Of a stretch of 53,580 bases of DNA, positions 114 through 52,260 are shown one piece after another. The notes beneath the pieces were generated by a model. That model saw nothing but the letters and a program-made list of their open reading frames with translations, was not told where the DNA came from and did not search any database. Made by a program: the position numbers and the translations under genes. Each line of letters starts with the position of its first letter. Within the stretch, counting starts at the first letter, position 1. This DNA is from Acidobacteriota bacterium (lineage in GTDB: Bacteria > Acidobacteriota > Blastocatellia > Pyrinomonadales > Pyrinomonadaceae): positions 1-53,580 of the forward strand of contig JBDTWZ010000001.1 in assembly GCA_040006435.1 (NCBI GenBank). The letters are read 5' to 3'.

Positions 114-1808
114 ATGGTAACCAACTTAATTTCTTATTCCCTCACGCCTGATTTGCAGGACGCCGTGCAAGCTGAGGTCGAATCCTGGAAAGCGGACGAC
201 AAGGTCGCGCGCATTTGGGCGCGGGACGCTTCTGTCTGGACCGGCAACGACGAAGAACAGTGGCTCGGATGGCTGGATATTGTCGATCAAGAGTTAGGTG
301 ATCTTAAGAAATACCGAGACCTTGCCGCGGAAATCGAGCAAGCCGGATTCACAGACATTCTACTGATGGGAATGGGCGGCTCATCGTTGTGCCCCGAAGT
401 CCTCGCGATGACGTTTGGCAAAACAAACTTTCACATTCTCGACTCGACCGTGCCGGCGCGGGTCAAAGCCGTCGAGGACAAACTCGATCTCCCGAAAACT
501 CTTTTCATCGTCGCAAGCAAATCGGGCTCGACACTCGAGCCGAATTGTTTCAAACAATATTTCTTTGAACGCGTTTCTCAGATTTCCGAGACGCCCGGAA
601 AACAATTCGTCGCCATCACCGATCCCGGTTCGAAGATGGAGCAGATCGCGAAGGCCGATGGATTTCGACACATCTTCTACGGAAATCCGGAGATCGGGGG
701 GCGATTTTCGGCCCTGTCGGCGTTTGGCCTTGCGGCGGCTGCCTCGATGGGTTTGGATGTTGAGATCCTCTTGCAACGAGCCTCGGAGATGATTTCCGAA
801 TGCCGCAACCTCGTGCCGCAGGAAAATCCCGGCGCACCGCTTGGACTGATTCTCGGCGTATGCCATCGACATGGAAAGGATAAGCTGACGATCTTTGTTT
901 CGCCGGCGCTTCACGATGTCGGAGCGTGGCTCGAACAATTGATCGCCGAATCCACCGGCAAGAACGGCGTCGCGATAATTCCGGTGGATCGAGAGCCGAT
1001 GATCGACGCGGAGAATTATCACAGTGACCGGGTGTTCGTACACCTCGGTATGAAAGACTCGGCCACCGATGAGCGAATTCACCAAGGGTTGGAAGATATC
1101 GAACGCGCGGGACACCCGATGATCCGCATCGAACTCGAATCGCTCTATCACATCTCACAGGAATTTTTCCGTTGGGAGTTTGCGACAGCCGTCGCCGGTT
1201 CGGTGATGAAGATCAATCCGTTCAATCAGCCGGATGTCGAATCGGCAAAGATCGAGGCGCGGAGGATCACCGATCAGTATGAAGAGACCGGCTCGCTTCC
1301 CGACGAAACTCCGTTTTTCGAAGAGAGTGGAATCGCGTTATTCAGCAATGATGCGAACGTCGCGGCACTGGACGTTATCGCCGGTGATACCCGTTCGCTT
1401 GCCGGATATCTAAAAGCTCACATCTCGCGTATCGAGGCAAACGACTATTTCGCATTGCTCGCTTACGTTGAAATGAATTCGGAGAATGAAACTCTGTTGC
1501 AGGCCCTGCGCGAAACCGTCCTCAATCAGACCCTCGCTGCAACCTGTCTCGGCTTCGGTCCCCGATTCTTGCACTCTACCGGTCAGGCGTACAAGGGTGG
1601 CGGGAACAACGGAGTCTTTTTACAGATAACTGCCGACGACGAAGCCGATCTTCCGGTGCCGAAACAACAATATTCTTTTGGCATTGTGAAGTCGGCGCAG
1701 GCACGCGGCGACTTTCAGGTACTGCTGGATCGAGGACGGCGGGCGCTTCGTGTGCATTTACCGCCTGATGTTCGGAGCGGATTGTCTCGTCTTCTCGAGT
1801 GTCTCTGA
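114..1808 (+). CDS. pgi: glucose-6-phosphate isomerase
   Basis: Long ORF with SIS/PGI motifs MGMGGSSLCPEV and SKSGSTLEP. The ATG at 114 is preceded by AGAGGA and is preferred over the TTG at 57 used by the ORF track. Confidence 0.9.
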   Translation: MVTNLISYSLTPDLQDAVQAEVESWKADDKVARIWARDASVWTGNDEEQWLGWLDIVDQELGDLKKYRDLAAEIEQAGFTDILLMGMGGSSLCPEVLAMTFGKTNFHILDSTVPARVKAVEDKLDLPKTLFIVASKSGSTLEPNCFKQYFFERVSQISETPGKQFVAITDPGSKMEQIAKADGFRHIFYGNPEIGGRFSALSAFGLAAAASMGLDVEILLQRASEMISECRNLVPQENPGAPLGLILGVCHRHGKDKLTIFVSPALHDVGAWLEQLIAESTGKNGVAIIPVDREPMIDAENYHSDRVFVHLGMKDSATDERIHQGLEDIERAGHPMIRIELESLYHISQEFFRWEFATAVAGSVMKINPFNQPDVESAKIEARRITDQYEETGSLPDETPFFEESGIALFSNDANVAALDVIAGDTRSLAGYLKAHISRIEANDYFALLAYVEMNSENETLLQALRETVLNQTLAATCLGFGPRFLHSTGQAYKGGGNNGVFLQITADDEADLPVPKQQYSFGIVKSAQARGDFQVLLDRGRRALRVHLPPDVRSGLSRLLECL

Positions 1809-1829
1809 TCCAAGCATAAAACTGTAGTT

Positions 1830-1884
1830 ATAAAGGAGATGAAGGGGATCTGCTGCATAACAAATCCCCCTCCATCTCCTTTAT
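1830..1884. terminator. hairpin between convergent pgi and radical-SAM genes (possible bidirectional terminator)
   Basis: Imperfect inverted repeat ATAAAGGAGATGAAGGGGAT / ATCCCCCTCCATCTCCTTTAT with a 14-nt loop, lying between the two stop codons. There is no clean T-run, so the terminator role is inferred. Confidence 0.5.
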
Positions 1885-1897
1885 CCCTGCCAGAACT

Positions 1898-3847
1898 CTA
1901 GACACCAACCGTTTCGTCGTCTTCGATCAAATACGGCGAAACTGACGCCTTATCGATATCTTCTTCGAGAACCTTTGCGATCACAGGCAGAGACAGCGAA
2001 CGCGTTTTCTGGATTCCCGGAACTTCCTTTCCCTTCGCATAGACGGCGTGACGGCCGTTTTCCTGATACCACTCGGAAAGTGATGCCGTCTTGTGCATCT
2101 CTTCGATGATCTGCCGCCAGCCAACGCCGGTGTTGTATGCGCAAAAGCTGATCTCGCCTTCCTGCGTTCCGTACGGAATTACGCACATCTCGGTGCGGCG
2201 GAAGTCGTAGTTAAAAAGATCCTGGAACCACATTCCTTCGACACATAGAACGCGCCAAACGTCATCGTCGGATTTCTCGACCTTCATTCGATCGTTTCGG
2301 TCCGAGTTCGATGTCGTCGACGATGGTTTGAAAAGATTGATGATCTGCGAGATCGGGAATCCATCCGGAGCTTTCGCCGCGTCGTAATTGCGCATGATCG
2401 CCATCCCGAGTTGGGCCATCGTCAGCTTTTTGCCCCGGGCAGTATCGGTGATCGTCGCGACGTCCTTCATGAACTGCTCGTAGTTGAAAAATTCGAACAG
2501 CGATTTCGTCAGGCCGCTCTTTTTGTTGACGACCATCAGCGTGAATATCCCGCAATTCGGATGGCAATTGCACGACGACCAACCCCACGGAGCATCGGCA
2601 CCTTGCAGCATGTCCATGACGGATGTAAACGCGGAATAGCTGGACAGCGGAAACCAATCGCGCATCGGCTCGAGCACACCATCAAGCTGTTCTTTCAGAT
2701 CGTGCGTCATTCCCGCAAGTGTGTATCGCTGTTTGATGCGGTCCTCATCCGAAATGTCCTCATCGCGTCCGGTGAACGATACGGGCTGGAACGCGATCGT
2801 TTGAACCTTGTCGATGTTCTCCGCGGCAAATTTCACGATGCTGCCAATCCCGTTGTTGTTCCAGGAATTTACGATGGTCGTAACGAGCGTCACCTTAACA
2901 CCGACCGACGCGAGATTCTCGATCGCCTTGAGCTTGACGTCGAACAGATTGCCGACGCCACGATGCTCGTTGTCTTTCTCGTTGGTTCCGTCGAACTGAA
3001 GATAAACGCCGTGCTGGCCCGCTTCTTTCGCTGCCTTGCAAAACTCGATGTCCTCGGCATAACGGATGCCGTTAGTCGCGGCGAGAATCCGGTAGAATCC
3101 GACCTTCTTCGCGTAAGCAACGGCGTCGAGAAAGTATGGCGAGAGCGTCGGCTCGCCGCCTGAGAACAAAATGATGATCTGACGTTTTGGCTTGAACGAG
3201 ACGGCTCGATCGAGGATCGCTTTCGTATCTTCGAACGTCGGTTCGTGAACGTATCCAACCTGGTTCGCGTCCATAAAGCACGGATTGCACATCATGTTGC
3301 AGCGGTTGGTCAGATCTACGGTGAGCACCGCTCCGCGGCCGAACTTAATATCGCTCGTCCCGTGATGATGAACGTGTTTGTCCTCAGCCGCTTTGAAATC
3401 ACGTCCATAAAAAAGCGATTCGATACGGTTAAGAAAAGCGGAGTCGGTCGCCAGTACGTCAACGAACTCGCCGTGCGTTGTGCATGTCTTTCGCATCAGC
3501 ACCTGGCCGTTTTCTTCGACGATCTGGGCCTTGATCTCGCCCGGATGCGAATCCATCAAAATGTTCAGCGGAATGTCGCCGGAGATCACGCCGTTGCGGA
3601 CAGACTTTACGCATGAAGGACACAAGCTGTCGGTCTCGCGAGGAAATCCCAGCGGAGGCGCCGTACGTTCGTACGATTTCAAGAGCGGCTCGGCGGCCCA
3701 TGCGGGCTGTATCGACTCGCCTTCAGGAATCGCCTTATTGAGAGCCTGAAACGCCTTCCAGCCAAGATCGGCCATCTTTGAAACGGCCTTCGAACCTGTC
3801 TTGCCGTTCCCCTTTCCTTCACCTCGTCTGAAATTATCGCTAAACAT
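1898..3847 (-). CDS. large radical SAM enzyme with N-terminal Zn-ribbon-like segment and Cys-rich C-terminal half (possible tetraether-lipid-synthase-like protein)
   Basis: CNMMCNPC (CxxxCxxC) cluster motif, FSGGEPT SAM motif, N-terminal CPSC...CTTHGEF segment and C-terminal SSCNCHPNCG / CVIPYG...FCAYN cysteines. Start set at ATG 3847 (alternative 3775). The ORF-track extension to 4207 overlaps the divergent MOSC gene and is rejected. Confidence 0.85.
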   Translation of the reverse strand: MFSDNFRRGEGKGNGKTGSKAVSKMADLGWKAFQALNKAIPEGESIQPAWAAEPLLKSYERTAPPLGFPRETDSLCPSCVKSVRNGVISGDIPLNILMDSHPGEIKAQIVEENGQVLMRKTCTTHGEFVDVLATDSAFLNRIESLFYGRDFKAAEDKHVHHHGTSDIKFGRGAVLTVDLTNRCNMMCNPCFMDANQVGYVHEPTFEDTKAILDRAVSFKPKRQIIILFSGGEPTLSPYFLDAVAYAKKVGFYRILAATNGIRYAEDIEFCKAAKEAGQHGVYLQFDGTNEKDNEHRGVGNLFDVKLKAIENLASVGVKVTLVTTIVNSWNNNGIGSIVKFAAENIDKVQTIAFQPVSFTGRDEDISDEDRIKQRYTLAGMTHDLKEQLDGVLEPMRDWFPLSSYSAFTSVMDMLQGADAPWGWSSCNCHPNCGIFTLMVVNKKSGLTKSLFEFFNYEQFMKDVATITDTARGKKLTMAQLGMAIMRNYDAAKAPDGFPISQIINLFKPSSTTSNSDRNDRMKVEKSDDDVWRVLCVEGMWFQDLFNYDFRRTEMCVIPYGTQEGEISFCAYNTGVGWRQIIEEMHKTASLSEWYQENGRHAVYAKGKEVPGIQKTRSLSLPVIAKVLEEDIDKASVSPYLIEDDETVGV

Positions 3848-3955
3848 AATATTTGTCGGAGTGGGACGCACGAATCCCGGCGAACATCTTAACAAATATC
3901 TACCTGTCCTGCCCAATCTTGTGGCCCGTGGGCAAAATCGATATATTCGCCAATT

Positions 3956-4597
3956 ATGAGAGTTGTAACAGTTTCGGTGGGACAGCCGCAAATTGTTCAG
4001 ACTGGAAGCGAAGGATTTGTCCTCACGTCTATATTCAAGCATCGGGTTGACGGACGCGTGAGAGTGAATGAACTGAATCTTGCAGGCGATGCCCAGGCCG
4101 ACCTCACAGTACATGGCGGATGGAGCAAAGCTGTCTACGTTTACCCCGGTGAGCATTACGAATATTGGCGGAACGGGCTGCCGGAAATGGAACTGGGCGA
4201 TTCTCAATTCGGAGAGAACCTGACAACCGAAGGCTTGCTCGAAACCGAAGTATTTATCGGAGACAAAATTCGTATTGGAACAGCGGAGTTTGTCGTCACC
4301 GAACCCCGCATGCCGTGCTACAAACTCGGCATACGTTTTCGTCGAAAGGATATTCTTCGCCGGTTTCTACAGAGTCGAAAAAGCGGATTCTATCTTGCCG
4401 TAACAAAGACGGGGGAGCTTGCGGCCGGCGACGATATCGAAATTCTATCTCGAGATAAAAACGAGGTAACGGTCACGGATATCGTCAGGGTGTGGGTCCA
4501 GGACAAGGACGATCGAGAGACGATGGCGCGCGCTTTAAATATTGATGCGTTTCCCGAAAGCTGGAAGGAACCGTTCCGCGACCGACTCGCGGGTTAG
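3956..4597 (+). CDS. MOSC domain-containing protein (YiiM-like)
   Basis: 213 aa with typical MOSC beta-barrel motifs (GDAQADLTVHGG, TEPRMPCYKLG). The ATG start is divergent from the radical-SAM gene. Confidence 0.85.
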   Translation: MRVVTVSVGQPQIVQTGSEGFVLTSIFKHRVDGRVRVNELNLAGDAQADLTVHGGWSKAVYVYPGEHYEYWRNGLPEMELGDSQFGENLTTEGLLETEVFIGDKIRIGTAEFVVTEPRMPCYKLGIRFRRKDILRRFLQSRKSGFYLAVTKTGELAAGDDIEILSRDKNEVTVTDIVRVWVQDKDDRETMARALNIDAFPESWKEPFRDRLAG

Positions 4598-4614
4598 ACG
4601 TCGCCCCGCGGAAG

Positions 4615-5994
4615 CTACTCGGTGAGACGGGCAACGGCAAAAACACTACCGGTGATCGACATGTTCGGGTTCTGCGTGTAACCGACGACAAGCAGCTTCC
4701 CGTCCGGTTGGAGAGTAACGTCGCTGGCTCCCGCATTTTGGCCGGCGGTGAATGAAAATGACGTTTGCTCCTCGAACGCTCCAGTTGCAGAGAACCGGGC
4801 AACCAAAAAACTTGGAGTCGTCTCCGAGCCGATCTCGCCGGCTATTCGGATCTTACCGTCCGGTGAAATTGCGATCGAATTTGCAATATCCGTAGCGCCG
4901 GGAGCGAAGTCGTTTACCACAACGCCGTCGCTTCCAAACGTGGTGTCCCGTCTGCCGTTCGGTCTAAAGCGCGCCATCCATACATCCGTGTCTGAACTCA
5001 CAACGTTGCCGCAAAGAAGTATGTTGCCGTCAGCCTGCAGCAATGCCTTACGAACGGTACCAGTCAAGCCAGAGCCAAACGCAACACGCACAAAGCCAGA
5101 ACGACCGAACGTCTTGTCCCAATTTCCCGTCTCTGTCAGGCGGGCAAAGAAAAACTCACTCGAGCCGGTTGGCGAGTCGAACGGCGGGACGTGGCCAACA
5201 AGGAGAATCTTCCCGTCGTTCATTGCTATCATTTCGATAAAATTCGTCGGCGAAAATTTGTTAAAGCCAATTCTGAGAACGCCGTTTGCTCCGAAGGTCG
5301 TGTCGCGGGTGCCGTCTGAATTGAGGCGATAGAGAAAATACCCGCCTTCGTCCGTGACAAGCGCAAGAATTTTCCCGTCACTCCTGACGGCGATCTGGAC
5401 AGGTCGCGCGGTGAAAAAACCGAAGCAACATGGACCGATGCTTACGTTCGAAGCAAAGACATTGTCTACTCCTCCATTCGCCGTAAGGCGGACTGTTTGA
5501 ACAGTGCTTGATCCGACAGGAAGCCTTGAAACTTGCGCGATGCGCAAGGTTGATCCATCCGCGTACATCAGTGCATCCGTAAAATTCGTGCGGGCGTCCG
5601 ATCGCCAATCGGTGTGCGTTCCGCCGGAGCCAAAGCCTGAATCGAGGGCCCCGCTCGGCGTCAGTCCGGCCCAGGCAACTCCGGGCAACTGCCCGTCAGG
5701 GCTGATGTTTGAGAACGATCCGACGACAAGTATCCGATTGTTCGGCTGAAGGAAAACTCTAAATGCTTGTGATCTGTAGGTGGTAGACGAATCCGGAAAA
5801 GAGACCGTAACCTTTCCGCTGCCATTGAACGTCGGGTCGAGATTGAATGCGGCGTGTACCGGCAGGAGCCACACAAAGTTGAGGAGCGATATTGTTATGG
5901 ACTTCGTGATCGCACTCCGAAGTCGTGATCGGCGTGTTGTTATCGCGGTTTCCACCTCCACAAAAGAGCAGGTACGGTCCTGGGTGAGAAGCAA
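4615..5994 (-). CDS. secreted beta-propeller repeat protein (delta-60-type repeats)
   Basis: Hydrophobic signal-like segment SITISLLNFVWLLPVHA, followed by degenerate repeats with D-x-x-FG-x-x-G motifs (DPTFNGSG, DSGFGSGG, DTTFGANG, DKTFGRSG, DTTFGSDG). Confidence 0.65.
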   Translation of the reverse strand: MLLTQDRTCSFVEVETAITTRRSRLRSAITKSITISLLNFVWLLPVHAAFNLDPTFNGSGKVTVSFPDSSTTYRSQAFRVFLQPNNRILVVGSFSNISPDGQLPGVAWAGLTPSGALDSGFGSGGTHTDWRSDARTNFTDALMYADGSTLRIAQVSRLPVGSSTVQTVRLTANGGVDNVFASNVSIGPCCFGFFTARPVQIAVRSDGKILALVTDEGGYFLYRLNSDGTRDTTFGANGVLRIGFNKFSPTNFIEMIAMNDGKILLVGHVPPFDSPTGSSEFFFARLTETGNWDKTFGRSGFVRVAFGSGLTGTVRKALLQADGNILLCGNVVSSDTDVWMARFRPNGRRDTTFGSDGVVVNDFAPGATDIANSIAISPDGKIRIAGEIGSETTPSFLVARFSATGAFEEQTSFSFTAGQNAGASDVTLQPDGKLLVVGYTQNPNMSITGSVFAVARLTE

Positions 5995-6035: not shown

Positions 6036-7346
6036 TTACTCGAAGGCCTCCAAATATTTCACGCCAGAACCGGTGTTGAATAGCACGACAGTTTCACCAT
6101 CTTTAACCTCGGCTCGATCGATCAGTGTTAGTAAGGCGGGCAGGCACGCAGCACCCTCGGGAGCGGCAAAAACACCTTCGGTCGCACCGATCTCGCCGAC
6201 GGCTTTCACTAATTCTTCATCGCTCACAGCAATCGCGGTTCCACCCGATGCTCGGATAGCATCTAGGATCAAAAAATCGCCGATGGCTTTTGGAACTCGA
6301 AGGCCGGACGCGACGGTCGAAGCATTCTCGAATTCGTCAGCAAATCTGTCTCCTTTCTCGAACGCCCGCACTATCGGAGCGCAAGTTGCCGATTGGACCG
6401 TTACCATTCTTGGACGGCGCGAATCGATCCAGCCCATCTGCTCCATCTCGTCGAACGCTTTCCACATTCCGATCAAGCCGGTGCCGCCGCCGGTGGGATA
6501 AATGATCACGTCGGGTAAGTAGCGGGCTCTCTGATCGGGCACCACCCCGTCATCCGCTTCGCGGATGCCACCCCTCCTTAAACCAGGAGGGGAGCTATGT
6601 GCCAAACTCCCCTCCTGGTTTAAGGAGGGGTGGCCGAGGCTTTGCGAGGCCGGGGTGGTGCTGTAAGCGCCAAACTGTTCGAAGAGCTCATACCCCATCG
6701 TCTTCTTGCCTTCGACACGATACGGCTCTTTCAGCGTAGATACGTCAAACCAGCCTTCGGCCTCTTTTCTCTCGGCGACTATCTTTCCGCAATCCGTGAT
6801 CAAGCCGTCGACGAGAGTGACGTGCGCTCCCGTCTGCTCGCATTCGACGATGTTCGCTCGCGGAGTGTCGGATGGCATAAAGATAAATGCTTCCATTCCG
6901 GCTCGTGCGGCATACGCTGCCATCGCTCCCGCGGCGTTCCCCGCCGAAGGGACGGCGACCTTTTTCACGCCTAGCTCCTTTGCCATCGAGATCGCGGCCG
7001 TCATGCCGCGGGCTTTGAAGCTCTGCGTCGGGTTCTGGCCCTCGTCCTTGATGAACAGGTTTAGTTTGATCGGCAGTTTTTCCGCAAGTCGGCCGGCTTT
7101 TAGAAGCGGTGTCCAGCCTTCGCCAAAACTAATAATGTTGTCGGGGTTTTCAACCGGCAACACTTCGCGGTATCGCCACAATGACGATTCCCTCGACGCG
7201 AGTGCATCCGGCGTTATTGTCGCCGCAGCTTTTTCGAGGTCATATCGAACGAGCAGCGGCTTGCCGCATTCGACGCAGAGATTCTGCAGTTTATTCGCTT
7301 CGTGCCGCAGTCCGCAGAGCGCGCATTCGAGGTGTGTGACGTTCAT
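6036..7346 (-). CDS. thrC: threonine synthase carrying a 41-codon in-frame repeat insertion
   Basis: N-terminal Cys4 ribbon (CALCG...CVECG), PLP lysine motif TQSFKARG and glycine loop YPTGGGTGLIG. Start set at ATG 7346 (MNVTHLE), which removes the overlap with the upstream gene. Confidence 0.9.
   Translation of the reverse strand: MNVTHLECALCGLRHEANKLQNLCVECGKPLLVRYDLEKAAATITPDALASRESSLWRYREVLPVENPDNIISFGEGWTPLLKAGRLAEKLPIKLNLFIKDEGQNPTQSFKARGMTAAISMAKELGVKKVAVPSAGNAAGAMAAYAARAGMEAFIFMPSDTPRANIVECEQTGAHVTLVDGLITDCGKIVAERKEAEGWFDVSTLKEPYRVEGKKTMGYELFEQFGAYSTTPASQSLGHPSLNQEGSLAHSSPPGLRRGGIREADDGVVPDQRARYLPDVIIYPTGGGTGLIGMWKAFDEMEQMGWIDSRRPRMVTVQSATCAPIVRAFEKGDRFADEFENASTVASGLRVPKAIGDFLILDAIRASGGTAIAVSDEELVKAVGEIGATEGVFAAPEGAACLPALLTLIDRAEVKDGETVVLFNTGSGVKYLEAFE
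6539..6661. repeat. 123-bp nested palindromic element inside thrC
   Basis: Outer 11-bp inverted repeat GCACCACCCCG/CGGGGTGGTGC (6539-6549, 6651-6661). Inner perfect 27-bp inverted repeat (6568-6594, 6607-6633) with a 12-nt loop. Each inner arm contains its own 8-bp hairpin CCCCTCCT-TAAACC-AGGAGGGG. Confidence 0.9.
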
Positions 7347-7383
7347 AGACCGAATCAATATAGCTCGAGCAGCGAGCTCCGGG

Positions 7384-8064
7384 TCACTTCTTCCAAACAA
7401 ATTCTTTGAACAAATTGAAGGCGGCATTAAAGCCGAGTGAGAGGGTACCGCTTCGAACGCCATCTTTCCAATCGTATCGATCCGGGTACCACGTTTCGTA
7501 GGCGATGATGCTCGACGTGAATGTTCCGGCTAAGTTCGGGACGCCGATGACACGCTTACCATACCTATCACGCGCCGTGACGGGCGAGATGAGTACGTTC
7601 CGGATGCGGGCGGACACGCTTTTTTTCCGACTGCGATAGAAATGACTGTCCAATTTCATCGCTTCGTCGAGACCAAACTTCGTAGTTTGTTTGATCGCAT
7701 TCTTACCAAAGTTGGATGCGACGCGGCGCCCAAAACCTTCCCATTTCGTTCCCCACTCTGCCGGCGAATTACGCCAGGTAGAAATTCCCGCGGTCGCGAT
7801 CATTCTTCCAAGAGCGAACGGCCCAACGGTGCTGTTGATGAACCGCTTTTGGCGCGTAGCAGCGGTAGGTCGAACATAGTCAGTAGACGGCTTCACCGTG
7901 AATAGCCCGGGCTGAACCGTCGACCTTTGGAGTTCTTTATTCTGGTCTTTATCCGCAAGGTCGGTTGCGGTCGTTGGATCTGGTGTCGGCGTCGGTGTGG
8001 GGTCCTGCGCTAGTGTGACAGACGTCGCGAACAGAAGAGTCATTAGCAAAAAGTGCGGTTTCAT
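7384..8064 (-). CDS. hypothetical secreted protein
   Basis: Signal peptide MKPHFLLMTLLFATSVTLAQ followed by a PTPTPTPDP linker. No recognisable catalytic motif. Confidence 0.6.
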   Translation of the reverse strand: MKPHFLLMTLLFATSVTLAQDPTPTPTPDPTTATDLADKDQNKELQRSTVQPGLFTVKPSTDYVRPTAATRQKRFINSTVGPFALGRMIATAGISTWRNSPAEWGTKWEGFGRRVASNFGKNAIKQTTKFGLDEAMKLDSHFYRSRKKSVSARIRNVLISPVTARDRYGKRVIGVPNLAGTFTSSIIAYETWYPDRYDWKDGVRSGTLSLGFNAAFNLFKEFVWKK

Positions 8065-9609: not shown

Positions 9610-9690
9610 CGAGGTATGAGCGTCGTCGCGAGAATCGCCGCCGGTCAAACTCTTTTCACTTTTCACTTTTCACTCGTCACTCATCACTCG
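9599..9690 (+). repeat. heptamer-periodic GTGA/TCAC hairpin element (copy 2), spanning the ybbA stop and ending 7 nt before the ybbP ATG
   Basis: Perfect 13-bp inverted repeat GATGAGTGACGAG (9601-9613) / CTCGTCACTCATC (9673-9685). Core CCGGTCAAA. Tandem 7-mers ACTTTTC ACTTTTC ACTCGTC ACTCATC ACTCG (9658-9690). Confidence 0.8.
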
Positions 9691-15530: not shown

Positions 15531-17408
15531 CTATTCCGCTCGAAGGATTAGTTTGTAGATCGTGTACATGCCCACGACCTCGCCGCCATCCCGTACGTAC
15601 CATTTATCGAGATTGCTGAGATCGGTGTCCGCATCGTTCCTTACCACGGCGTAGGACAGCATGGGGTTTGCGGCGTTGACGGCGTTGAATGCGGACCTAT
15701 AGGCGGCGTAGCGCTCGACCTCAGAGTCGATCTCACCATAGGTCAGCGGCGTTGCTTCGCTGCTCAGACGATCGGTGTGTCTTCCCCAACCAAAGAGCGC
15801 GATCTTCGTGACGAAGTCATTTTTCAAAAGATAATCCAGAACCTCTTCATCGACATTTGAGTAATAAAGATATTGAAAGTAACGGTCCTTATTTTCCTGC
15901 CAGGACATCCCGGCAAATACATGCTGATGACGCGACCACAGAACGTTCTGCGGCGCGATGCTCGGCAAATCGTCCGACTGGATCATGTCGTACGCCAGCA
16001 CGGTGGAGCGATACGGATCGACATCCTCTAGTGACAACTCTTCGAGTCGTTTCGCGACTGGCAGCGCAATATCGCGCTCGACGTTCGCACCGTCCAGGAC
16101 GCGCACCGTGTAATGGCACTCGACAAATCCCCAGAGGATCGCGACGATGGCAAGCGATGCGCAGGCTAGTTTCGCCCGGGCACTTTCTATACTCAACCAT
16201 TGGCGAAGCAAAACTCCGATGGTCACGATCAGAGCGAGTGCCGCAACATAATTCCCGATGAACACCTGATAATGGATCGGCTGCAGCGAACGTCCAGTGA
16301 CGATCTGCTGATTGAAGATAATAAAAGGAACAAGAGCCAGCGAGAGTGCGAATAGAGTCGACCTGTCGCCCGGAGCGATCATCCTTTTCGTGACGCCGAC
16401 AGCAAGCAACAGCAGACATATCAAGCTTACATATTCGGGCATCCGCCACAGGTCCGGCACCCGCGTGTAAACCAAGAGTTGGACGTCGTCCATCGTCTCG
16501 GACCGTTTCGAAAGCAGCCAGGCGTACGGAATGACGGCGAGTGCACAGCCGACCCCGACGGCGATAAGGTTCTTTATATCCCGCCCAAAACTTTCCGGCC
16601 GAAATACAAGCCAGACAACGAAAAGACATCCGAGCCAGGCGGCCGCAGTCGTCCAGATGTAGAAATAAGAGAAGACGGTGTAGGCGAAGAGAAAGATCGC
16701 GGCGGTGAGAAATAAATAGCGCTGGAGAGCGGAACCGGTAGCGACCGGTTTTCCCGGTGATGGATCGATCGCCTTGACGGGCGACCCGGTCGCTACCGCT
16801 CCCGGTTCTGACTTCCGTTCTTCAACAAGGCGCCAGACCACCGCAAACAAACCGAACACTGCGGCCATTGCCATCGCCGGAATATATCGGCGAAATCCGG
16901 GAAAGTACGGATAAGAGAATCCATCGAAGAATATCTCGGGCATCGCACCTTCGCCCGCGGCCAGGGCTCCGCCTGCGAATACGACAAGCGAACCGGCCAT
17001 TCCGAACCAACTGCTCCCGGTGATCCGCGCGATCAGCCAAAACGCAGCAAGCGCCGCCAGAAAGCCCGCGGCGGCTCCGGACAAGGTCATCGCCCACGGC
17101 GTTCCGACACCAAGGATCCGCGCAGGGATCGCGATCGAGTATGGCGCGGCGAATTGGATGGAAAAAAGTGATTCGGGCTGCGGCGTCAAAGGCGATTCGT
17201 CGCGACCCGAATAAGGATCATTCTTCCGCGGACGGCCGTCGATCAACGCACGAACGTAAGAGGCATAAGCAACTTCGTCGATGTCGTTGTATGCGTAGTG
17301 CCCGTTCCACTCCGACCCGCGCAGATAGAACATGTTCAACTGCGGGTAGAGGCAAAAAATTGCAAGGAATACAGCGGCGACAATGCCGAAGCGCCAGCGA
17401 AGCTTCAT
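15531..17408 (-). CDS. large polytopic membrane protein of unknown function carrying an in-frame palindromic repeat
   Basis: 625 aa with at least 10 hydrophobic segments and a soluble C-terminal domain. No catalytic motif recognised. Confidence 0.75.
   Translation of the reverse strand: MKLRWRFGIVAAVFLAIFCLYPQLNMFYLRGSEWNGHYAYNDIDEVAYASYVRALIDGRPRKNDPYSGRDESPLTPQPESLFSIQFAAPYSIAIPARILGVGTPWAMTLSGAAAGFLAALAAFWLIARITGSSWFGMAGSLVVFAGGALAAGEGAMPEIFFDGFSYPYFPGFRRYIPAMAMAAVFGLFAVVWRLVEERKSEPGAVATGSPVKAIDPSPGKPVATGSALQRYLFLTAAIFLFAYTVFSYFYIWTTAAAWLGCLFVVWLVFRPESFGRDIKNLIAVGVGCALAVIPYAWLLSKRSETMDDVQLLVYTRVPDLWRMPEYVSLICLLLLAVGVTKRMIAPGDRSTLFALSLALVPFIIFNQQIVTGRSLQPIHYQVFIGNYVAALALIVTIGVLLRQWLSIESARAKLACASLAIVAILWGFVECHYTVRVLDGANVERDIALPVAKRLEELSLEDVDPYRSTVLAYDMIQSDDLPSIAPQNVLWSRHQHVFAGMSWQENKDRYFQYLYYSNVDEEVLDYLLKNDFVTKIALFGWGRHTDRLSSEATPLTYGEIDSEVERYAAYRSAFNAVNAANPMLSYAVVRNDADTDLSNLDKWYVRDGGEVVGMYTIYKLILRAE
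16729..16812. repeat. palindromic GTAGCGACC-type element inside the membrane-protein gene
   Basis: Perfect 12-bp inverted repeat GGTAGCGACCGG (16737-16748) / CCGGTCGCTACC (16786-16797) around an ATCGAT centre. The right half (16778-16812) is 33/35 identical to 20597-20631. Confidence 0.85.
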
Positions 17409-19649: not shown

Positions 19650-21545
19650 GTGAAACCGACAAACATTAACGATCCCGAATATTTTCATAAGGTGGTGGAT
19701 TGCCAGTACGCATGTCCGGCCCACACACCGGTGCCGGAGTACATTCGCCTCATCGCCGAGGGAAAGTACACCGAGGCGTACATGATCAACTGGGACTCGA
19801 ATGTATTTCCCGGAATCCTCGGGCGTACATGCGATCGCCCGTGCGAACCGGCATGCCGGCGCGGCCGCATTGACGAAGAGCCGGTTGCGATCTGTCGTCT
19901 GAAGCGCGTTGCCGCGGATAATAAAGACGATGTCAAACATTTGATGCCGCAGGCGCCGTTCAAGCCGAACGGAAAAAAGGTGGCGCTGATCGGCGCCGGT
20001 CCTGCTTCCCTGACGGTCGCACGCGATCTGGCACCGCTCGGCTACGAGATCCATCTGTTCGACGAACAGTACAAGGGCGGCGGGTTTATGCTCAGCCAGA
20101 TCCCCGCGTTTCGTCTGCCCGAAACGGTGCTCGACGAAGAGGTAAACTACATTCTCGACCTCGGCATTCACACACACTTCAAACATTACGTCTCGTCGCT
20201 GAAAGAAGTCCTAGAGCAGGATTACGACGCCGTGTTTGTCGGCACGGGCGCACCGCGCGGACGCGAACTGAAGATCCCCGGCCGTGAAGAAGGCGCGGCG
20301 AACATTCACATCGGCATTAACTGGCTCGGCAGCGTCGCATTCGAACACACGAGCAAGATCGGCAAGAACGTCATCGTGCTCGGCGGCGGCAACACCGCGA
20401 TGGACTGCTGCCGCACCGCGCGCCGTGTCGGCGGCGAAGACGTCAAGGTCATCGTCCGCTCGCCGTTCGCCGAGATGAAGGCATCGCCGTGGGAAAAAGA
20501 AGACGCACAGCACGAGGACATCCCGATCATCGACAACCACGTACCGAAGTCATTCGTGATCGAATACGACGAAGATAACGACGCCGGGACGGATCTGTCA
20601 GAACCGCGAGCGGTAGCGACCGGGTCACCCGGTGGGAGTTCGACGCCTAAGGGCCGTCTCAAGGGCGTCATGTTCGAAAAGGTAGAAGCGAAGTACGACG
20701 CCGCCGGCAAACGTTCGCTCGTCCCGACCGGCGAGCCCGACGTGTTCTTCCCCGCCGACGATGTTCTCGTCGCAATTGGTCAGGAAAACTCGTTCCCCTG
20801 GATCGAGCGCAACATCGGTCTCGATTTCGACAAGTGGGAGATGCCGATCGTCGACAAGACGACATTTCAATCGACGCATCCGAAAGTTTTCTTCGGCGGC
20901 GACGCGGCGTTCGGTCCCGAGAATGTCATCACCGCCGTCGCTCACGGACACCAGGCGGCCGTCTCGATAGATCTGCTTTGCAACAAAAAGAATCTGCTGA
21001 CCGAGCGACTTCACCCGATGGTCAATCTCGTCTCGCAAAAGATGGGTATCCACGAATGGGCATACGACAGCGAGATCGACGAATACGACCGACTCGTCGT
21101 CCCGCAGGCGCCGAAAACAAAGACGCTCGTCAATCGAAAACAGGAAGTCGAGATGGGATTCGACCGGCTCGCCGGATTCAAGGAAGCGGAACGGTGCTTG
21201 AACTGCGATGTTCAGACCGTCTTCGACGCACCGAAATGCATCGAGTGCGACGCCTGCGTCGACATCTGCCCGACAGCCTGCATCACCTTCACCGCGAACG
21301 GCGACGAAGAAGATCTTCGCTCGCGAACAAAAGTTCCCGCCCTCACTCTCACACAGGACCTCTACGTCTCTGAGCCGCTTATCCAAACCAAACGGATCAT
21401 GGTCAAGGACGAAGACGTGTGCCTCCATTGCGGCCTCTGCGCCGAACGCTGCCCGACCGCCGCCTGGGACATGCAAAAATTCTGGTACGACGTGACGAAG
21501 GCCGGCGAGGTCAAGTACGGGTGTAATGGAAATGGTGGGGGGTAA
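19650..21545 (+). CDS. GltD-like FAD/NAD(P)-dependent oxidoreductase fused to a 2x[4Fe-4S] ferredoxin domain, with an in-frame repeat insertion
   Basis: N-terminal Fe-S segment CQYACPAHTP...CDRPCEPAC, dinucleotide folds VALIGAGPASL and VIVLGGGNTAMD, C-terminal CLNCD...CIECDACVDICP and CLHCGLCAERCP. GTG start after GGAGA. Confidence 0.85.
   Translation: MKPTNINDPEYFHKVVDCQYACPAHTPVPEYIRLIAEGKYTEAYMINWDSNVFPGILGRTCDRPCEPACRRGRIDEEPVAICRLKRVAADNKDDVKHLMPQAPFKPNGKKVALIGAGPASLTVARDLAPLGYEIHLFDEQYKGGGFMLSQIPAFRLPETVLDEEVNYILDLGIHTHFKHYVSSLKEVLEQDYDAVFVGTGAPRGRELKIPGREEGAANIHIGINWLGSVAFEHTSKIGKNVIVLGGGNTAMDCCRTARRVGGEDVKVIVRSPFAEMKASPWEKEDAQHEDIPIIDNHVPKSFVIEYDEDNDAGTDLSEPRAVATGSPGGSSTPKGRLKGVMFEKVEAKYDAAGKRSLVPTGEPDVFFPADDVLVAIGQENSFPWIERNIGLDFDKWEMPIVDKTTFQSTHPKVFFGGDAAFGPENVITAVAHGHQAAVSIDLLCNKKNLLTERLHPMVNLVSQKMGIHEWAYDSEIDEYDRLVVPQAPKTKTLVNRKQEVEMGFDRLAGFKEAERCLNCDVQTVFDAPKCIECDACVDICPTACITFTANGDEEDLRSRTKVPALTLTQDLYVSEPLIQTKRIMVKDEDVCLHCGLCAERCPTAAWDMQKFWYDVTKAGEVKYGCNGNGGG
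20597..20660 (+). repeat. GTAGCGACC-type repeat inside the GltD-like gene
   Basis: GTCAGAACCGCGAGCGGTAGCGACCGGGTCACCCG (20597-20631) matches the reverse complement of 16778-16812 at 33/35. It is followed by GACGCCTAAGGGCCGTC, which resembles the REP hairpin core. Confidence 0.8.
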
Positions 21546-22168: not shown

Positions 22169-22183
22169 TCTTAGCGATTGTCG

Positions 22184-22501
22184 CGGAGCGACCACATGCA
22201 TTTAGCCGTGGCCTTAAGGCCACGGCTTCCGACGACCCGTTCCTGCCGCATCAGCGGTAGTTGGTTCAATTGCCGCTAACGCGGCAAGAATTACTTGCAT
22301 CCTCCAACCGTGGCCTGAAGGCCACGGCTAAAGGCGTCTGCCCGCTACGCGGTCAGCTCGCCGGATCGAGGGTCGAGGCGACGCGGTCGGGTCGAGGCAA
22401 GGTGGGCGAGGCAAGGTCGTCGCGTAGCGACCGCATGCATTTAGCCGTGGCCTTAAGGCCACGGTTTTCCGACGACCCCGTTCCTGCCGCGTCAGCGGTA
22501 G
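22184..22501. repeat. cluster of three REP units (alternating orientation, BIME-like)
   Basis: Units of about 80 nt. Each has a GTAG-containing head (CGCGTAGCGACC), hairpin core GCCGTGGCC-loop-GGCCACGGC (cores at 22205-22226, 22308-27, 22444-64) and a second small hairpin CTGCCGC-NTCA-GCGGTAG. The middle unit is inverted. Confidence 0.9.
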
Positions 22502-22507
22502 GTGAAA

Positions 22508-22978: not shown

Positions 22979-23050
22979 TCTACCGCTGAGGCGGCAATGT
23001 GACCGTGGCCTAAAGGGCCACGGCTAAATGCGTGCGGCCGCTACGCGGCT
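22979..23050. repeat. REP unit (inverted relative to 22419-22501)
   Basis: CTACCGCTGAGGCGGCA...CCGTGGCCTAAAGGGCCACGGCTAAATGCGTGCGGCCGCTACGCGG. This is the reverse complement of the REP consensus, including the GTAG head. Confidence 0.9.
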
Positions 23051-23273
23051 GCTACCACATTTCGAGTTTGGTCCGCGGCCATCTTAGAAAGGCATCGACA
23101 AACTCGTCTTTAATTTTTCTGAATTGTTCCGAAATGCATCAGCATCCGCACGCCGAGCGACATCGCCGGTCATCCATTCAGGTCACGAAAGCTCGCACGG
23201 ACAGATGCATGTAGGGGGTAATCGGCTCCCGCGCTTGGTTCCAAGGGCACTTTCGGTTAATCCTACGTAGAGC

Positions 23274-31528: not shown

Positions 31529-33499
31529 ATGAAGATCAACGACTTTGTAGTCCGCTTTGCGAATGTGAACGGTACCGGTTCGGCATCGGCCAACGCACTG
31601 TTTACAAAGGCAGTGTTTCGCATGGGCGTGCCGGTGACGCCGAAGAATATCTTTCCGTCGAATATCCAGGGGCTGCCGACGTGGTACGAGGTGCGTATTT
31701 CGGAAGGCGGACATCTCGGCCGCCGCGAGGGCGTCGATCTGATGATCGCGGTCAATCCGCAGTCGATGAAAAAGGATTACGCCGATGTTCGCGAGGGCGG
31801 CTATTTTCTTTACGACTCCTCGAAGCCCCTCGCACCCGGTTACGATCGGACCGACATCACCCATATCGGCATCCCGCTGATGACTCTCTGCAATGCAGAG
31901 TTTACCGACGCACGCCAGCGCCAGCTTTTCAAGAACATCGTCTATATCGGAGCCCTTGTCGCTCTGTTCGGGATCGAGTTTGAAATGCTCGAGCAGCTCG
32001 TCGGCGAACAGTTCCGCGGTAAGGAAAAATTGATCGAGCCTAACATCCGGGCGCTCAACATCGGGGTGAAATACACGCGGGAGAATTTCGAATGTCCGTT
32101 AGACATACGCGTCGAACGCCGCGACCTGCTCGGCGATAAAGTTCTTTACAGCGGCAATTCGGCGTGCGCACTCGGTGCGATCTATGCCGGAGCAACCGTC
32201 GCCGCGTGGTATCCGATCACACCTTCAACATCGGTCGTCGATGCGTTTGCCAAGTATGCCGCTAAGTACCGCGTCGACGCCGAGACGGGTATGAACAACT
32301 ACGCGATCGTGCAGGCCGAGGACGAACTCGCGGCGATCGGAATGGTAATGGGCGCGTGCTGGAACGGCGCACGTGCGTTCACCGCGACGAGCGGCCCGGG
32401 CATCTCTCTGATGAACGAGTTCCTCGGCCTCGGCTATTTTGCCGAGGTGCCGACGGTGCTAATAGACGTACAACGAACCGGCCCATCCACCGGCATGCCG
32501 ACGCGGACACAGCAATCCGACATTTTGCTCGCGGCGTATGCGTCGCACGGCGATACAAAACATCCGCTGTTGTTCCCAGCCTCGCCGAAGGAATGTTTCG
32601 AGATGACGGCCGACGCCTTCGATCTGACCGAGCGTCTTCAGACGCCGGTCATCGTCATGACGGATCTCGATCTCGGGATGAACGATCACATCACCGAGCC
32701 TCTTGTTTGGGATGACGCCCGTAAATTTGACCGCGGCAAGGTCCTTACAGCCAGACATCTTGAACGCCTCGGCGGTGCGGCACTGGCTGATATCGTCGAG
32801 GGGATGGAGAACGAAACCGACGGCGACGCGTTCGCGGGCAGCGCCATTGAACAGTTTCGCGGTAAATTTGGCCGCTATCTTGACATCGACGACGACGGTA
32901 TTCCGTACCGCACAGTTCCCGGCGTTCATCCGACGCGCGGGGCATATGTCACACGCGGCTCATCGCGTGACGAGTACGCAGTCTACACCGAGGACGGCGA
33001 CGTCTATCGTCGCAACATGGACCGCCTCGCCCGCAAGTGGGACACGGCGAAGGAGCTGGTGCCGCAGCCGGAATTTTATGGCGACGCGGGGACGGGGCGA
33101 CACGGAGAAGGGGAGAAAGGGAGAAAGGGAGAGGGGCCGACCTCTGACTCGTCACTCGTCACTCGTCCCTCATCACTAAAAAATGACGCCGTCATTTTTT
33201 TCGGAACCTCCACATACGCAGCGATCGAGGCATTGGAGCTATTAGCCGATGAGGGAATCCGACTCGACGCGATGCGAGCCCGTGGATTCCCTTTTGGAAA
33301 GTCGTTTCGTGATTTCATCGACTCACACGACCGCGTCTTCGTCATCGAACAAAACCGCGATGCGCAGTTTCGCAGCCTGATGATGATCGAATTAGGAGTC
33401 GACGCATCAAAGCTTGTTTCGGTCCTAAACTACGACGGGATGCCGATCACGGCGGACAACATCTTCATACAGATTAATTCATTTTCTCAGGACCAATGA
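31529..33499 (+). CDS. korA: 2-oxoacid:ferredoxin oxidoreductase, fused gamma-alpha subunit, with an in-frame repeat insertion
   Basis: N-terminal gamma-like VNGTGSASANALF...PSNIQGLPTWYEVR, and alpha domain with TGPSTGMPTRTQQSD. ATG 31529 preferred over TTG 31523. No beta-subunit gene follows. Confidence 0.85.
   Translation: MKINDFVVRFANVNGTGSASANALFTKAVFRMGVPVTPKNIFPSNIQGLPTWYEVRISEGGHLGRREGVDLMIAVNPQSMKKDYADVREGGYFLYDSSKPLAPGYDRTDITHIGIPLMTLCNAEFTDARQRQLFKNIVYIGALVALFGIEFEMLEQLVGEQFRGKEKLIEPNIRALNIGVKYTRENFECPLDIRVERRDLLGDKVLYSGNSACALGAIYAGATVAAWYPITPSTSVVDAFAKYAAKYRVDAETGMNNYAIVQAEDELAAIGMVMGACWNGARAFTATSGPGISLMNEFLGLGYFAEVPTVLIDVQRTGPSTGMPTRTQQSDILLAAYASHGDTKHPLLFPASPKECFEMTADAFDLTERLQTPVIVMTDLDLGMNDHITEPLVWDDARKFDRGKVLTARHLERLGGAALADIVEGMENETDGDAFAGSAIEQFRGKFGRYLDIDDDGIPYRTVPGVHPTRGAYVTRGSSRDEYAVYTEDGDVYRRNMDRLARKWDTAKELVPQPEFYGDAGTGRHGEGEKGRKGEGPTSDSSLVTRPSSLKNDAVIFFGTSTYAAIEALELLADEGIRLDAMRARGFPFGKSFRDFIDSHDRVFVIEQNRDAQFRSLMMIELGVDASKLVSVLNYDGMPITADNIFIQINSFSQDQ
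33104..33200 (+). repeat. composite periodic repeat inside korA (purine octamers, ACTCGTC heptamers, 11-bp palindrome)
   Basis: GGAGAAGG GGAGAAAG GGAGAAAG GGAGAGGG (33104-33135). ACTCGTC x3 plus CCTCATC ACT (33147-33177), shared with 9672-9688. AAAAAATGACG-C-CGTCATTTTTT (33178-33200). Confidence 0.8.
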
Positions 33500-51937: not shown

Positions 51938-52003
51938 GAATGAAGTTTAGCAGACGCGTACCCGCAAATCGGCGAGATGCCGACAAGGCACGCCGCGTCG
52001 GGC

Positions 52004-52175
52004 CGCGTAGCGGCCGCTCGCATTTAGCCGTGGCCTTCAGGCCACGGATGAAGGTCAACAAATCTTGCCGCGTCAGCGGCAATTGAGAATTCGTGCGGTC
52101 GCTACGCGACGCAATTGATTTTTCCGACTACCCGTGGCCTAAGGGCCACGGCTAAACTCGATTGACCGCGACGGG
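52004..52175. repeat. REP doublet of the same family as at 22.2-23.0 kb
   Basis: CCGCGTAGCGGCCGCTCGCATTTAGCCGTGGCCTTCAGGCCACGG...CTTGCCGCGTCAGCGGCAA, then an inverted, partly rearranged unit with core CCGTGGCCTAAGGGCCACGGCTAAA (52132-52155). Confidence 0.85.
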
Positions 52176-52260
52176 GGCAAAGAATTTGTAGGCCGTCGGC
52201 GTGAGCTCAGTCAAGATTGAAGCAGTGCGTGCATTTCACGAGATGGGTTAAAATATCTCC

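Follow-up and report, generated by a model that had tools for sequence, protein, structure and literature searches.

A nested palindrome lying in frame in an acidobacterial threonine synthase gene is probably a tail-to-tail dimer of a dispersed REP-like unit

Introduction

Palindromic repeats that lie in frame within protein-coding genes were first a rickettsial curiosity and were later met in a handful of other genomes. The Rickettsia palindromic elements (RPE-1 to RPE-8) are dispersed palindromes found in frame in genes, where they add extra peptide segments at permissive sites. Here, we describe a 123-bp nested palindrome inside thrC, the gene for threonine synthase (ThrC), on a stretch of 53,580 nucleotides from an Acidobacteriota bacterium of the Pyrinomonadaceae (NCBI GenBank assembly GCA_040006435.1, contig JBDTWZ010000001.1, positions 1 to 53,580). 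This whole stretch is hereafter called the window, and positions refer to it unless another locus, denoted L with a number, is named.

In 2013, Di Nocera, De Gregorio and Rocco (BMC Genomics 14:522, PMC3733652) described a CGTC-tagged superfamily of repetitive extragenic palindromic (REP) sequences, in which an unpaired CGTC tag, for which TGTC or CCTC may stand, is followed by a hairpin and a CCA tail. Its four families have stems of 8-9 bp, heterogeneous in sequence, and loops of 4-5 nt, and are listed for Proteobacteria, Chlorobi, Bacteroidetes, Spirochaetes and Thermotogae. These repeats form mainly head-to-head dimers, often heterodimers, tail-to-tail dimers being rarer and tandem ones rare; they have no dedicated transposase, and intragenic copies occur in several species, notably in uvrA, polA and tRNA-synthetase genes. 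Two rickettsial elements belong here, RPE-6 of R. conorii being CGTC-1 and RPE-4 being CGTC-4, and threonine synthase is not among the hosts in the supplementary table of intragenic REPs (PMC3733652).

Our literature search found no paper on the family described below or on REP-like repeats in Acidobacteria. The kind, REP- or RPE-like repeats able to live in genes, is known; the family, its phylum and its composite architecture appear undescribed.

Results

Anatomy of the thrC palindrome

The palindrome occupies positions 6539 to 6661, and its repeats, its fold, two covariance-model matches and its alignment with copies at two other loci (L010 and L014) identify it as a tail-to-tail, that is convergent, dimer of a REP-like unit. 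An earlier note, made from the letters of the stretch, had described one 123-bp palindromic element; the palindrome is there, and what looked like a single element is a dimer of a smaller unit. Unit 1, of the CGTC type, lies at 6538-6597 (+) and comprises a box, hairpin A1, CCACCCC and hairpin B (covariance model R1, built from 43 units; 56.7 bits, E = 9e-12), while unit 2, with the variant tag CGGC and a weak A segment, lies at 6604-6662 (−) and matches the same model with 45.7 bits (E = 3e-9).

The two head boxes, located by repeat search, are the arms of an 11-bp outer inverted repeat, as the earlier note had it: GCACCACCCCG at 6539-6549 (+) on the left, belonging to unit 1, and CGGGGTGGTGC at 6651-6661 (−) on the right, belonging to unit 2. 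The repeat can be extended to 16 nt at 88% complementarity. Within unit 1, sequence, repeats and family covariation together place at 6548-6570 (+) the CGTC tag (6548-6551), hairpin A1, ATCCGC-TTC-GCGGAT (6552-6566), with its 6-bp stem and 3-nt loop, and a GCCA tail (6567-6570); the extra hairpin reported earlier, CATCCGC-TTC-GCGGATG, was likewise found, at 6551-6567. The corresponding A2 segment of unit 2, GCCTCGCAAAGCCTCGG at 6634-6650 (−), makes a poor hairpin; it is identical in L010 and has two differences in L014.

Between these lie the inner arms, also defined by repeat search. Arm 1 (6567-6594, +) carries hairpin B1, CCCCTCCT-TAAACC-AGGAGGGG, at 6571-6592, and arm 2 (6607-6634, −) carries hairpin B2 at 6609-6630, so the 8-bp hairpin described for each arm is present in both. 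The two arms form an inverted repeat that is perfect over 28 bp, with a 12-nt spacer between the tails (6595-6606) whose sequence is unrelated among the three known doublet copies; the perfection and the 12 nt had been given correctly before, the length as 27 bp. The RNA fold of the thrC-sense strand reaches −99.7 kcal/mol, against −54.3 ± 4.4 in dinucleotide shuffles (z = −10.3, 0/200), and the DNA fold of the element gives z = −10.8 against shuffles.

The loops of the inner arms differ between copies: TAAACC in both arms of the window, TAGACA in both arms of L014, where the stem has one mismatch at position 47, and TAAACC with TAGACA in L010. Templated correction within quasi-palindromes is an established mutational process, and the near-identity of the inner arms would fit it. 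Because the dimer measures 123 nt and is open in the thrC frame, thrC remains intact. The equation of 123 nt with 41 codons thus holds in length, with the codons (6540-6662) shifted by one base from the limits of the palindrome.

A REP-like unit with a covarying hairpin

Side-by-side reading of genome copies found through hairpin B yields a unit of about 55-60 nt: a head box ACCACCCCG(T/G)C, a variable hairpin A, (G/T)CCACCCC, hairpin B (CCCCTCCT-loop-AGGAGGGG) and then A(G/A). Copies located through the B hairpin alone share the box ACCACCCCG, which recurs in metagenome copies, and have (G/T)CCA after hairpin A, as does unit 1 of the window; most of about 35 such copies carry the CGTC tag, which in unit 1 stands directly 5' of the stem ATCCGC. 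The tag forms part of a longer conserved box, ACCACCCCGTC, and the conserved boxes also include ACCACCCC. The variant tag CGGC marks unit 2 of the window and the second partners of other tail-to-tail dimers. In a set of 153 distinct metagenome units the box and CCA belonged to the search pattern, so that set offers no independent evidence for CCA.

Hairpin A varies in sequence and keeps its pairing. Across the 153 units, 94-99% of copies are paired at the first three positions, against 19-28% with a shifted register, and A-T, T-A, C-G and G-C pairs are all used there. In a separate alignment of 73 units (A3), 96.2% of hairpin A cells are paired; shuffles reach 54.3% (0/500), and sliding the partners gives 21-46%. 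Stems run from 3 to 10 bp, mostly 3-6 with modes at 3 and 5, and loops from 3 to more than 20 nt. IS200/IS605 and RAYT (REP-associated tyrosine transposase) systems recognise a folded single strand, and a covarying hairpin between invariant unpaired boxes would be the signature of such recognition.

An nhmmer census of about 0.9 Mb of loci carrying units counted 236 units. More than half were single (125), and the pairs comprised 30 head-to-head, 15 tail-to-tail and 14 tandem ones. Tail-to-tail pairs mostly join a CGTC-type unit with a variant one as heterodimers, as in the window, and 13 of the 15 have a gap of 4-12 nt. The spacers (4-12 nt) of the tail-to-tail dimers in L017, L069, L078, L116 and L126 are unrelated even among near-identical dimers.

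Comparison with described repeats

The acidobacterial unit resembles the CGTC superfamily in its unpaired CGTC tag 5' of a hairpin, its CCA tail and heterogeneous stems, in the excess of head-to-head over tail-to-tail dimers, the frequent heterodimers and the lack of an adjoining transposase, and in its uvrA, polA and tRNA-synthetase hosts. It differs in stems and loops that do not keep to 8-9 bp and 4-5 nt, in the longer box ACCACCCCGTC, in a second, sequence-conserved hairpin (CCCCTCCT/AGGAGGGG), in a higher share of tandem pairs than the 2013 paper describes and in its phylum, Acidobacteria being outside the five reported there. We therefore treat it as a variant of the CGTC-tagged kind of REP, not as a member of the four families.

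The likeness to the RPEs lies in dispersed palindromes that stand in frame in genes as extra peptide segments; the units described here, however, occur in free-living soil Acidobacteriota, a different phylum and lifestyle, and combine two hairpins with conserved boxes (the RPEs being compared by description only). REP doublets forming hairpins (REPINs), and the REP-RAYT systems in general, also have hairpins bearing an unpaired tag, inverted dimers folding as one long hairpin and a single-copy gene among the repeats, RAYT there and possibly a DUF559 gene here. Their tag is GTAG, whereas ours is CGTC or CGGC, and we found no RAYT flanked by units. REPINs are copied as a whole; the dimer spacers of the present units, in contrast, are not conserved. 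The bacterial interspersed mosaic elements (BIMEs) of E. coli, mosaics of Y and Z REPs, are likewise inverted heterodimers of two subtypes with variable linkers, but they are extragenic and unrelated in sequence, whereas many of the present units are intragenic.

Dispersal of the unit family

An exact 20-mer from the inner hairpin occurs at 12 loci in a collection of species-representative genomes, nine of them in three Pyrinomonadaceae metagenome-assembled genomes (MAGs), two in a Chloracidobacterium-labelled MAG and one in a Roseivirgaceae MAG. A pattern with hairpin A left free matches at least 120 metagenome stretches, with 153 distinct units among the matches listed, and also 11 stretches in viral contigs. 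The unit family is thus dispersed in Pyrinomonadaceae and many other soil bacteria, and further copies of the kind the earlier note had asked about do exist: an intergenic doublet in L014, single units in several Pyrinomonadaceae MAGs and the metagenome stretches.

No plasmid match to the element was found by BLAST. Rfam searches, at the gathering threshold and at permissive E-values, returned microRNA-type generic hairpins only, far under threshold, and no matching family. With the 41-aa peptide, a word-indexed protein search gave one candidate and an exhaustive HMMER search three further weak matches; with so few protein matches, peptide searches evidently count in-frame copies poorly.

The host gene and its loop

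The host open reading frame (ORF), 6036-7463 (−), is uninterrupted, and the insert reads EQFGAY-STTPASQSLGHPSLNQEGSLAHSSPPGLRRGGIREADDGVVP-DQRARYLPDVIIYPTGGG in the thrC translation, in agreement with the in-frame, stop-free peptide described earlier between EQFGAY and DQRARYLPDVIIYPTGGG. The thrC coding sequence is placed at 6036-7346 (−), encoding 436 aa from the start MNVTHLEC, with a PF00291 match, homologues called threonine synthase and matches to ThrC structures in the PDB. By the names of its homologues and the titles of the MAGs, the host protein is identified as the threonine synthase of a Pyrinomonadaceae acidobacterium. Its true start is probably MNVTHLEC at 7346, which all homologues share. 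The 39 codons 5' of it (7347-7463) overlap the 3' end of an adjoining ORF (7384-8064) and probably lie outside thrC proper.

The 41 codons STTPASQSLGHPSLNQEGSLAHSSPPGLRRGGIREADDGVVP (6540-6662, −) correspond to residues 229-269 of the 436-aa protein, as placed by translation, frame check and AlphaFold. The nearest ThrC homologues measure about 397 aa, and the surplus of the window protein falls between GYELxEQ and LPDVIIYPTGGG. A gap against orthologues is therefore present, as had been foreseen, of 39 aa rather than a clean 41 in the nearest homologue. In alignments with PDB structures, window residues 226 and 277 correspond to residues 178 and 180 of 2zsj, and to positions likewise two apart in 2d1f, so that 50 window residues replace the single residue of a tight turn. 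The expectation that ThrC is contiguous here thus holds for solved structures (2zsj 178/180) and fails for close relatives, where the loop varies from 3 to 52 aa among the 97 with a delimitable loop.

AlphaFold2, run on a 120-sequence alignment, predicts the ThrC fold confidently (pTM 0.80) and leaves residues 231-273 without secondary structure, at a predicted local distance difference test (pLDDT) score of about 33, between a helix at 210-229 and a strand at 280-284. This structure prediction, proposed beforehand as a check for a surface loop, is in line with one, the residues being predicted as disordered. Among the best 120 ThrC homologues listed from a collection of 5.8 billion proteins, the 41-residue peptide occurs only in the window's own protein. 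We conclude that the insert sits in a permissive, pre-existing hypervariable loop. An intein or intron was considered and rejected: 41 aa or 123 nt is too small for one, no Rfam intron match was found at 6400-6800, and the window ThrC has no Pfam domain other than PALP.

Several loop types recur across the ThrC tree (P0002-P0120, at window residues 225-276), namely IQNPKSKIQN, KLQFA..KLKFA, VRTGSGSDWV, ARTLLSA..DRSVRAP, GVPASAG..AKAGTPN and PPYEGGVAAASADGVV, and the shortest loop state is the four residues LDWT. Of the recurrent types, PPYEGGVAAASADGVV alone is confirmed from DNA. The types ARTLLSA...DRSVRAP, VRTGSGSDWV and KLQFA...KLKFA look like translated repeats of other families. For IQNPKSKIQN, the commonest loop sequence in relatives, the DNA AATCCAAAATCCAAAATC was found solely in thrC within 0.8 Mb, and we do not claim it as a dispersed repeat. 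One copy of the ARTLLSA...DRSVRAP loop (L155) contains a short hairpin, GCGGACA-CTCT-TGTCCGC, like the repeat that flanks a RAYT in L037, and no long inverted repeat; this link is suggestive only.

The same doublet at other loci

The 123-nt doublet recurs at two loci. In a second species, L010 (MAG swi_bin.309), it occupies the same thrC codon in the same frame, encoding FSTTPASQSLGHPSLDKEGSQERNSPPGLRRGGIREANDGVVPEEKAGP, so that palindromy and peptide are kept together in a second thrC copy rather than parted. In L014, a forest-soil contig from a third organism, it lies between FecCD permease and ABC ATPase genes and had been called a 53-aa ORF. Over 123 nt the three copies form a gapless alignment and are 86-90% identical overall, or 94-96% without the spacer.

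Between the window and L010 the doublets show 12 differences, of which seven fall in the spacer, two in a B loop and three in hairpin A1, two of the latter forming a compensatory pair; boxes and B stems show none. The insert is 90% identical, with 37 of 41 third codon positions the same, while thrC outside it is 79% identical and 51% so at third codon positions. The nucleotide sequence and structure of the element are thus conserved above the surrounding codons. The non-orthologous L014 doublet shows 15 differences from the window copy, eight of them in the spacer. As it is about as similar to the window copy as that of L010, the likeness of the two thrC copies reflects nearness to a subfamily consensus and not specifically shared descent.

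Other units have entered the same loop. The thrC loops of L016 (P0093) and L015 (P0056) contain units that belong to this family and run in the opposite orientation, and at least six more ThrC homologues carry a corresponding peptide, ...PP.(E/G)GGVAAASADGVV.... Independent insertions of units into the ThrC loop have certainly taken place.

Units in frame within other genes

About a quarter of the sampled units (38 of 153) stand in frames that run open for 60 codons or more to either side. Ten such ORFs were scanned against Pfam and are real genes; in most, domains flank the insert on either side or extend across it. Their products are a CopA-type P-type ATPase with several inserts, an M16 peptidase, glucose-6-phosphate isomerase, an acetyl-CoA-synthetase-like enzyme, UvrA, DNA polymerase I, ValRS, GluRS, an FtsX-type permease and the ATP synthase gamma subunit (AtpG). 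Intragenic units occur in both orientations relative to the host gene. This proportion, the ten confirmed hosts and the place of RPE-4 and RPE-6 in the CGTC superfamily (PMC3733652) bear out the RPE-like behaviour that had been suggested for the thrC element. Neither of the two outcomes named beforehand as refuting that reading was observed.

Some genes have been entered more than once or by a dimer: at least three unit-derived segments are seen in the CopA-type ATPase and two in the ATP synthase gamma subunit, and the UvrA insert is a head-to-head dimer. These genes lie at L004 4330-7167 (+), L135 2-1099 (+) and L095 2-5833 (−).

A candidate partner enzyme

Unbiased clustering of the ORFs near units returned, as their most recurrent neighbour, a DUF559 (PF04480, Vsr-like) endonuclease. 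Seven unit loci have a DUF559 gene 15-210 nt from units, and DUF559 genes within unit clusters, with units on either side at 260 nt or less, lie at L154 1418-1951, L148 1361-2170, L149-L152 1246-2156, L153 1350-2029, L138 1137-1795, L070 964-1528 and L082 700-1277. In the reverse direction, a search with the DUF559 core alone gave 120 homologues, 64 of which carry peptides encoded by units, either in an extension at the N-terminus or in a tail at the C-terminus. Four tail-less homologues checked in DNA all have 2-5 units no more than 260 nt from the gene, on both sides, and these four loci (3.4 kb each) hold no unit elsewhere. This association makes DUF559 a candidate partner enzyme of the units. 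We found no paper linking DUF559 to such repeats, and the window has no DUF559 gene. In L039, a DUF559 gene (~4413-4874, −) is broken by a hairpin-rich insertion that brings a stop codon.

RAYT was tried as the mobilising enzyme and rejected, since it shows no association with the units: tblastn with RAYT matched L037 only, where the Y1 transposase is flanked by a different, 30-nt inverted repeat and not by units. In that locus an IS200-like, RAYT-like Y1 transposase (PF01797, ~2749-3294) lies in frame and without stops inside an acetyl-CoA-synthetase-like gene (1753-4620, −), between the arms of the REP-like inverted repeat (2621-2650 and 3366-3395). AMP-binding matches stand on both sides of the transposase in the same ORF, which also has one unit near its C-terminus.

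Discussion

Origin of the thrC insert

We regard it as highly probable that the thrC insert is a tail-to-tail heterodimer of a non-autonomous REP-like unit, which landed at a permissive turn and is tolerated in frame. Units appear as singletons, head-to-head and tail-to-tail dimers and tandem arrays across Pyrinomonadaceae and other soil bacteria, and one dimer would have entered thrC at a site where solved ThrC structures have a one-residue turn and this family a hypervariable loop. The open frame, the position of the catalytic C-terminal half downstream of the insert and the absence of any hint of splicing make it most likely that the insert is transcribed and translated, forming a disordered surface loop of 41 residues which the enzyme tolerates. 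The units would move, or would have moved, by means of an enzyme that recognises structure and acts in trans on single-stranded DNA in folded form, as RAYT does for REPs, and the DUF559 endonuclease, a Vsr-like PD-(D/E)xK enzyme with genes within unit clusters, may be that enzyme. The perfection of the inner palindrome would be upheld by templated correction or reflect a recent origin, rather than a role in thrC.

More tentatively, with doubt outweighing confidence, DUF559 might be the missing partner of CGTC-type REP- and RPE-like repeats in general, in a REPtron-like system with a nicking endonuclease in place of the HUH transposase. Hairpin units would then spread through soil-bacterial genomes and seed translated loops in essential enzymes, the ThrC loop being one recurrent landing site.

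Several observations weigh against parts of this account. The 53.6-kb window contains no further unit, the next best R1 match reaching 7.5 bits, and the closest relative, L001 (21 kb), contains none, which leaves activity of the family in the window's genome unsupported. No target-site duplication and no conserved target sequence were found at the three doublet sites. No transposase adjoins the units, the 0.9 Mb around the 236 units holding a single Y1_Tnp (that of L037). The spacer is unrelated in all three doublet copies, though the unconstrained hairpin loops are nearly identical, and copying the dimer as one piece does not account for this. Such a pattern might arise if two unit types were assembled pairwise or if the hairpin tip were hypermutable. 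Units are arranged around DUF559 genes in varying geometry, and the DUF559 loci L148 and L154, from different genomes, have the same two downstream neighbours (Suc_Fer-like and Trypsin_2), so that an old resident gene fits as well as a mobile one. Finally, the window thrC shares 87.5% nt identity with the insert-free L001/P0002 and only 79% with L010, which implies either loss or replacement of the insert in relatives or two gains of it at one and the same codon.

Both histories are conceivable. One old insertion may have been lost later or overwritten in relatives; alternatively, two insertions may have occurred at the same codon, which would need a target preference, and the loop codons immediately flanking the insert, unrelated between the window and L010, speak against one. 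In a neighbour-joining tree of ThrC with the loop masked, the two doublet-bearing genes are not sisters; internal branches are short and carry no support values, and the pairing of the window with P0002 alone is secure. Counting gains of the insert from this tree was dropped, its internal branches being too short to trust.

Alternative explanations

The best-surviving alternative, in our view an improbable one, is that the palindrome is kept in thrC for a nucleic-acid function, either in the mRNA, as a hairpin of about 30 bp acting as an RNase III site, an inter-domain translational pause or a bypassed segment, or in the DNA, as a protein-binding or cruciform site. It could draw on the extreme stability of the fold, on stems and boxes that show no difference between the window and L010 against 51% identity at neighbouring third codon positions, and on the compensatory change in hairpin A1 beside unconserved flanking loop residues. 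Yet the intergenic L014 copy is as similar to the window as the L010 thrC copy, so that conservation follows the family consensus; intragenic units in both orientations tell against an RNA role tied to one strand; the insert is missing from most thrC relatives; and a bypassed segment would not need an open frame.

Considerably less likely is a classical MITE (miniature inverted-repeat transposable element), a deletion derivative of an insertion sequence mobilised by a DDE transposase, with the 11-bp outer repeat as terminal inverted repeats. An outer inverted repeat of 11-16 bp does stand at the ends of the doublet, and a small, non-coding, dispersed 123-bp doublet at three loci has the look of one. 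The commonest form of the family, however, is the single unit without terminal inverted repeats (125/236), the three doublet sites show no target-site duplication, no parent insertion sequence was found, and the covarying hairpin points to recognition of structure, not of sequence.

We give still less credence to a lineage-specific ThrC loop with a function at the protein level, in which palindromy would be incidental. The same 41-residue peptide in two species is what such a loop would show, but third codon positions are 90% identical inside the insert against 51% outside, the same DNA is intergenic in L014, the peptide is predicted to be disordered, and the window protein alone has it among the best 120 homologues listed. 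Least credible of all is an artefact of assembly or amplification, a fold-back chimera of which a perfect 28-bp palindrome would be typical, as the same structure is found at this site in a MAG assembled independently in another study (L010) and at a different place in a third assembly, the arms carry different A segments, unlike a fold-back, and the reading frame is intact.

Other repeats in the window

The window holds repeats of other types. One family, with units of ~50-100 nt in at least five copies and two clusters (22180-22504, 23004-23051 and 52002-52180), combines the hairpin AGCCGTGGCC-TTAA-GGCCACGGCT with a second hairpin GCCGC..GCGGC. A third type is an imperfect palindrome, CGGAACCGGTAGCGACCGG...CCCGGTCGCTACCGCTCCCG, at 16730-16804, with a partial copy 3.9 kb away at 20611-20643, and runs of 7-nt repeats (CACTTTT / CACTCGT) lie at 9644-9689 and 33133-33178.

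Significance

For annotation, the units account for many small ORFs that are spurious, and for odd tails at protein N- or C-termini (TTPSAEAAATPPS, SSPPYEGGVAAASADGVV), in MAG proteomes. The DUF559 association provides a testable candidate for the enzyme that, according to the literature, CGTC-type repeats lack. The ThrC turn is a tractable case, in which close relatives have nothing, one unit, a dimer or other repeat-like sequences at one site. More broadly, a well-defined unit is very common in soil metagenomes, with about a quarter of its sampled copies in frame, in hosts that include UvrA, Pol I, two tRNA synthetases, the ATP synthase gamma subunit and threonine synthase, and the family thereby constitutes a sizeable natural experiment on the origin of new protein segments from selfish DNA.

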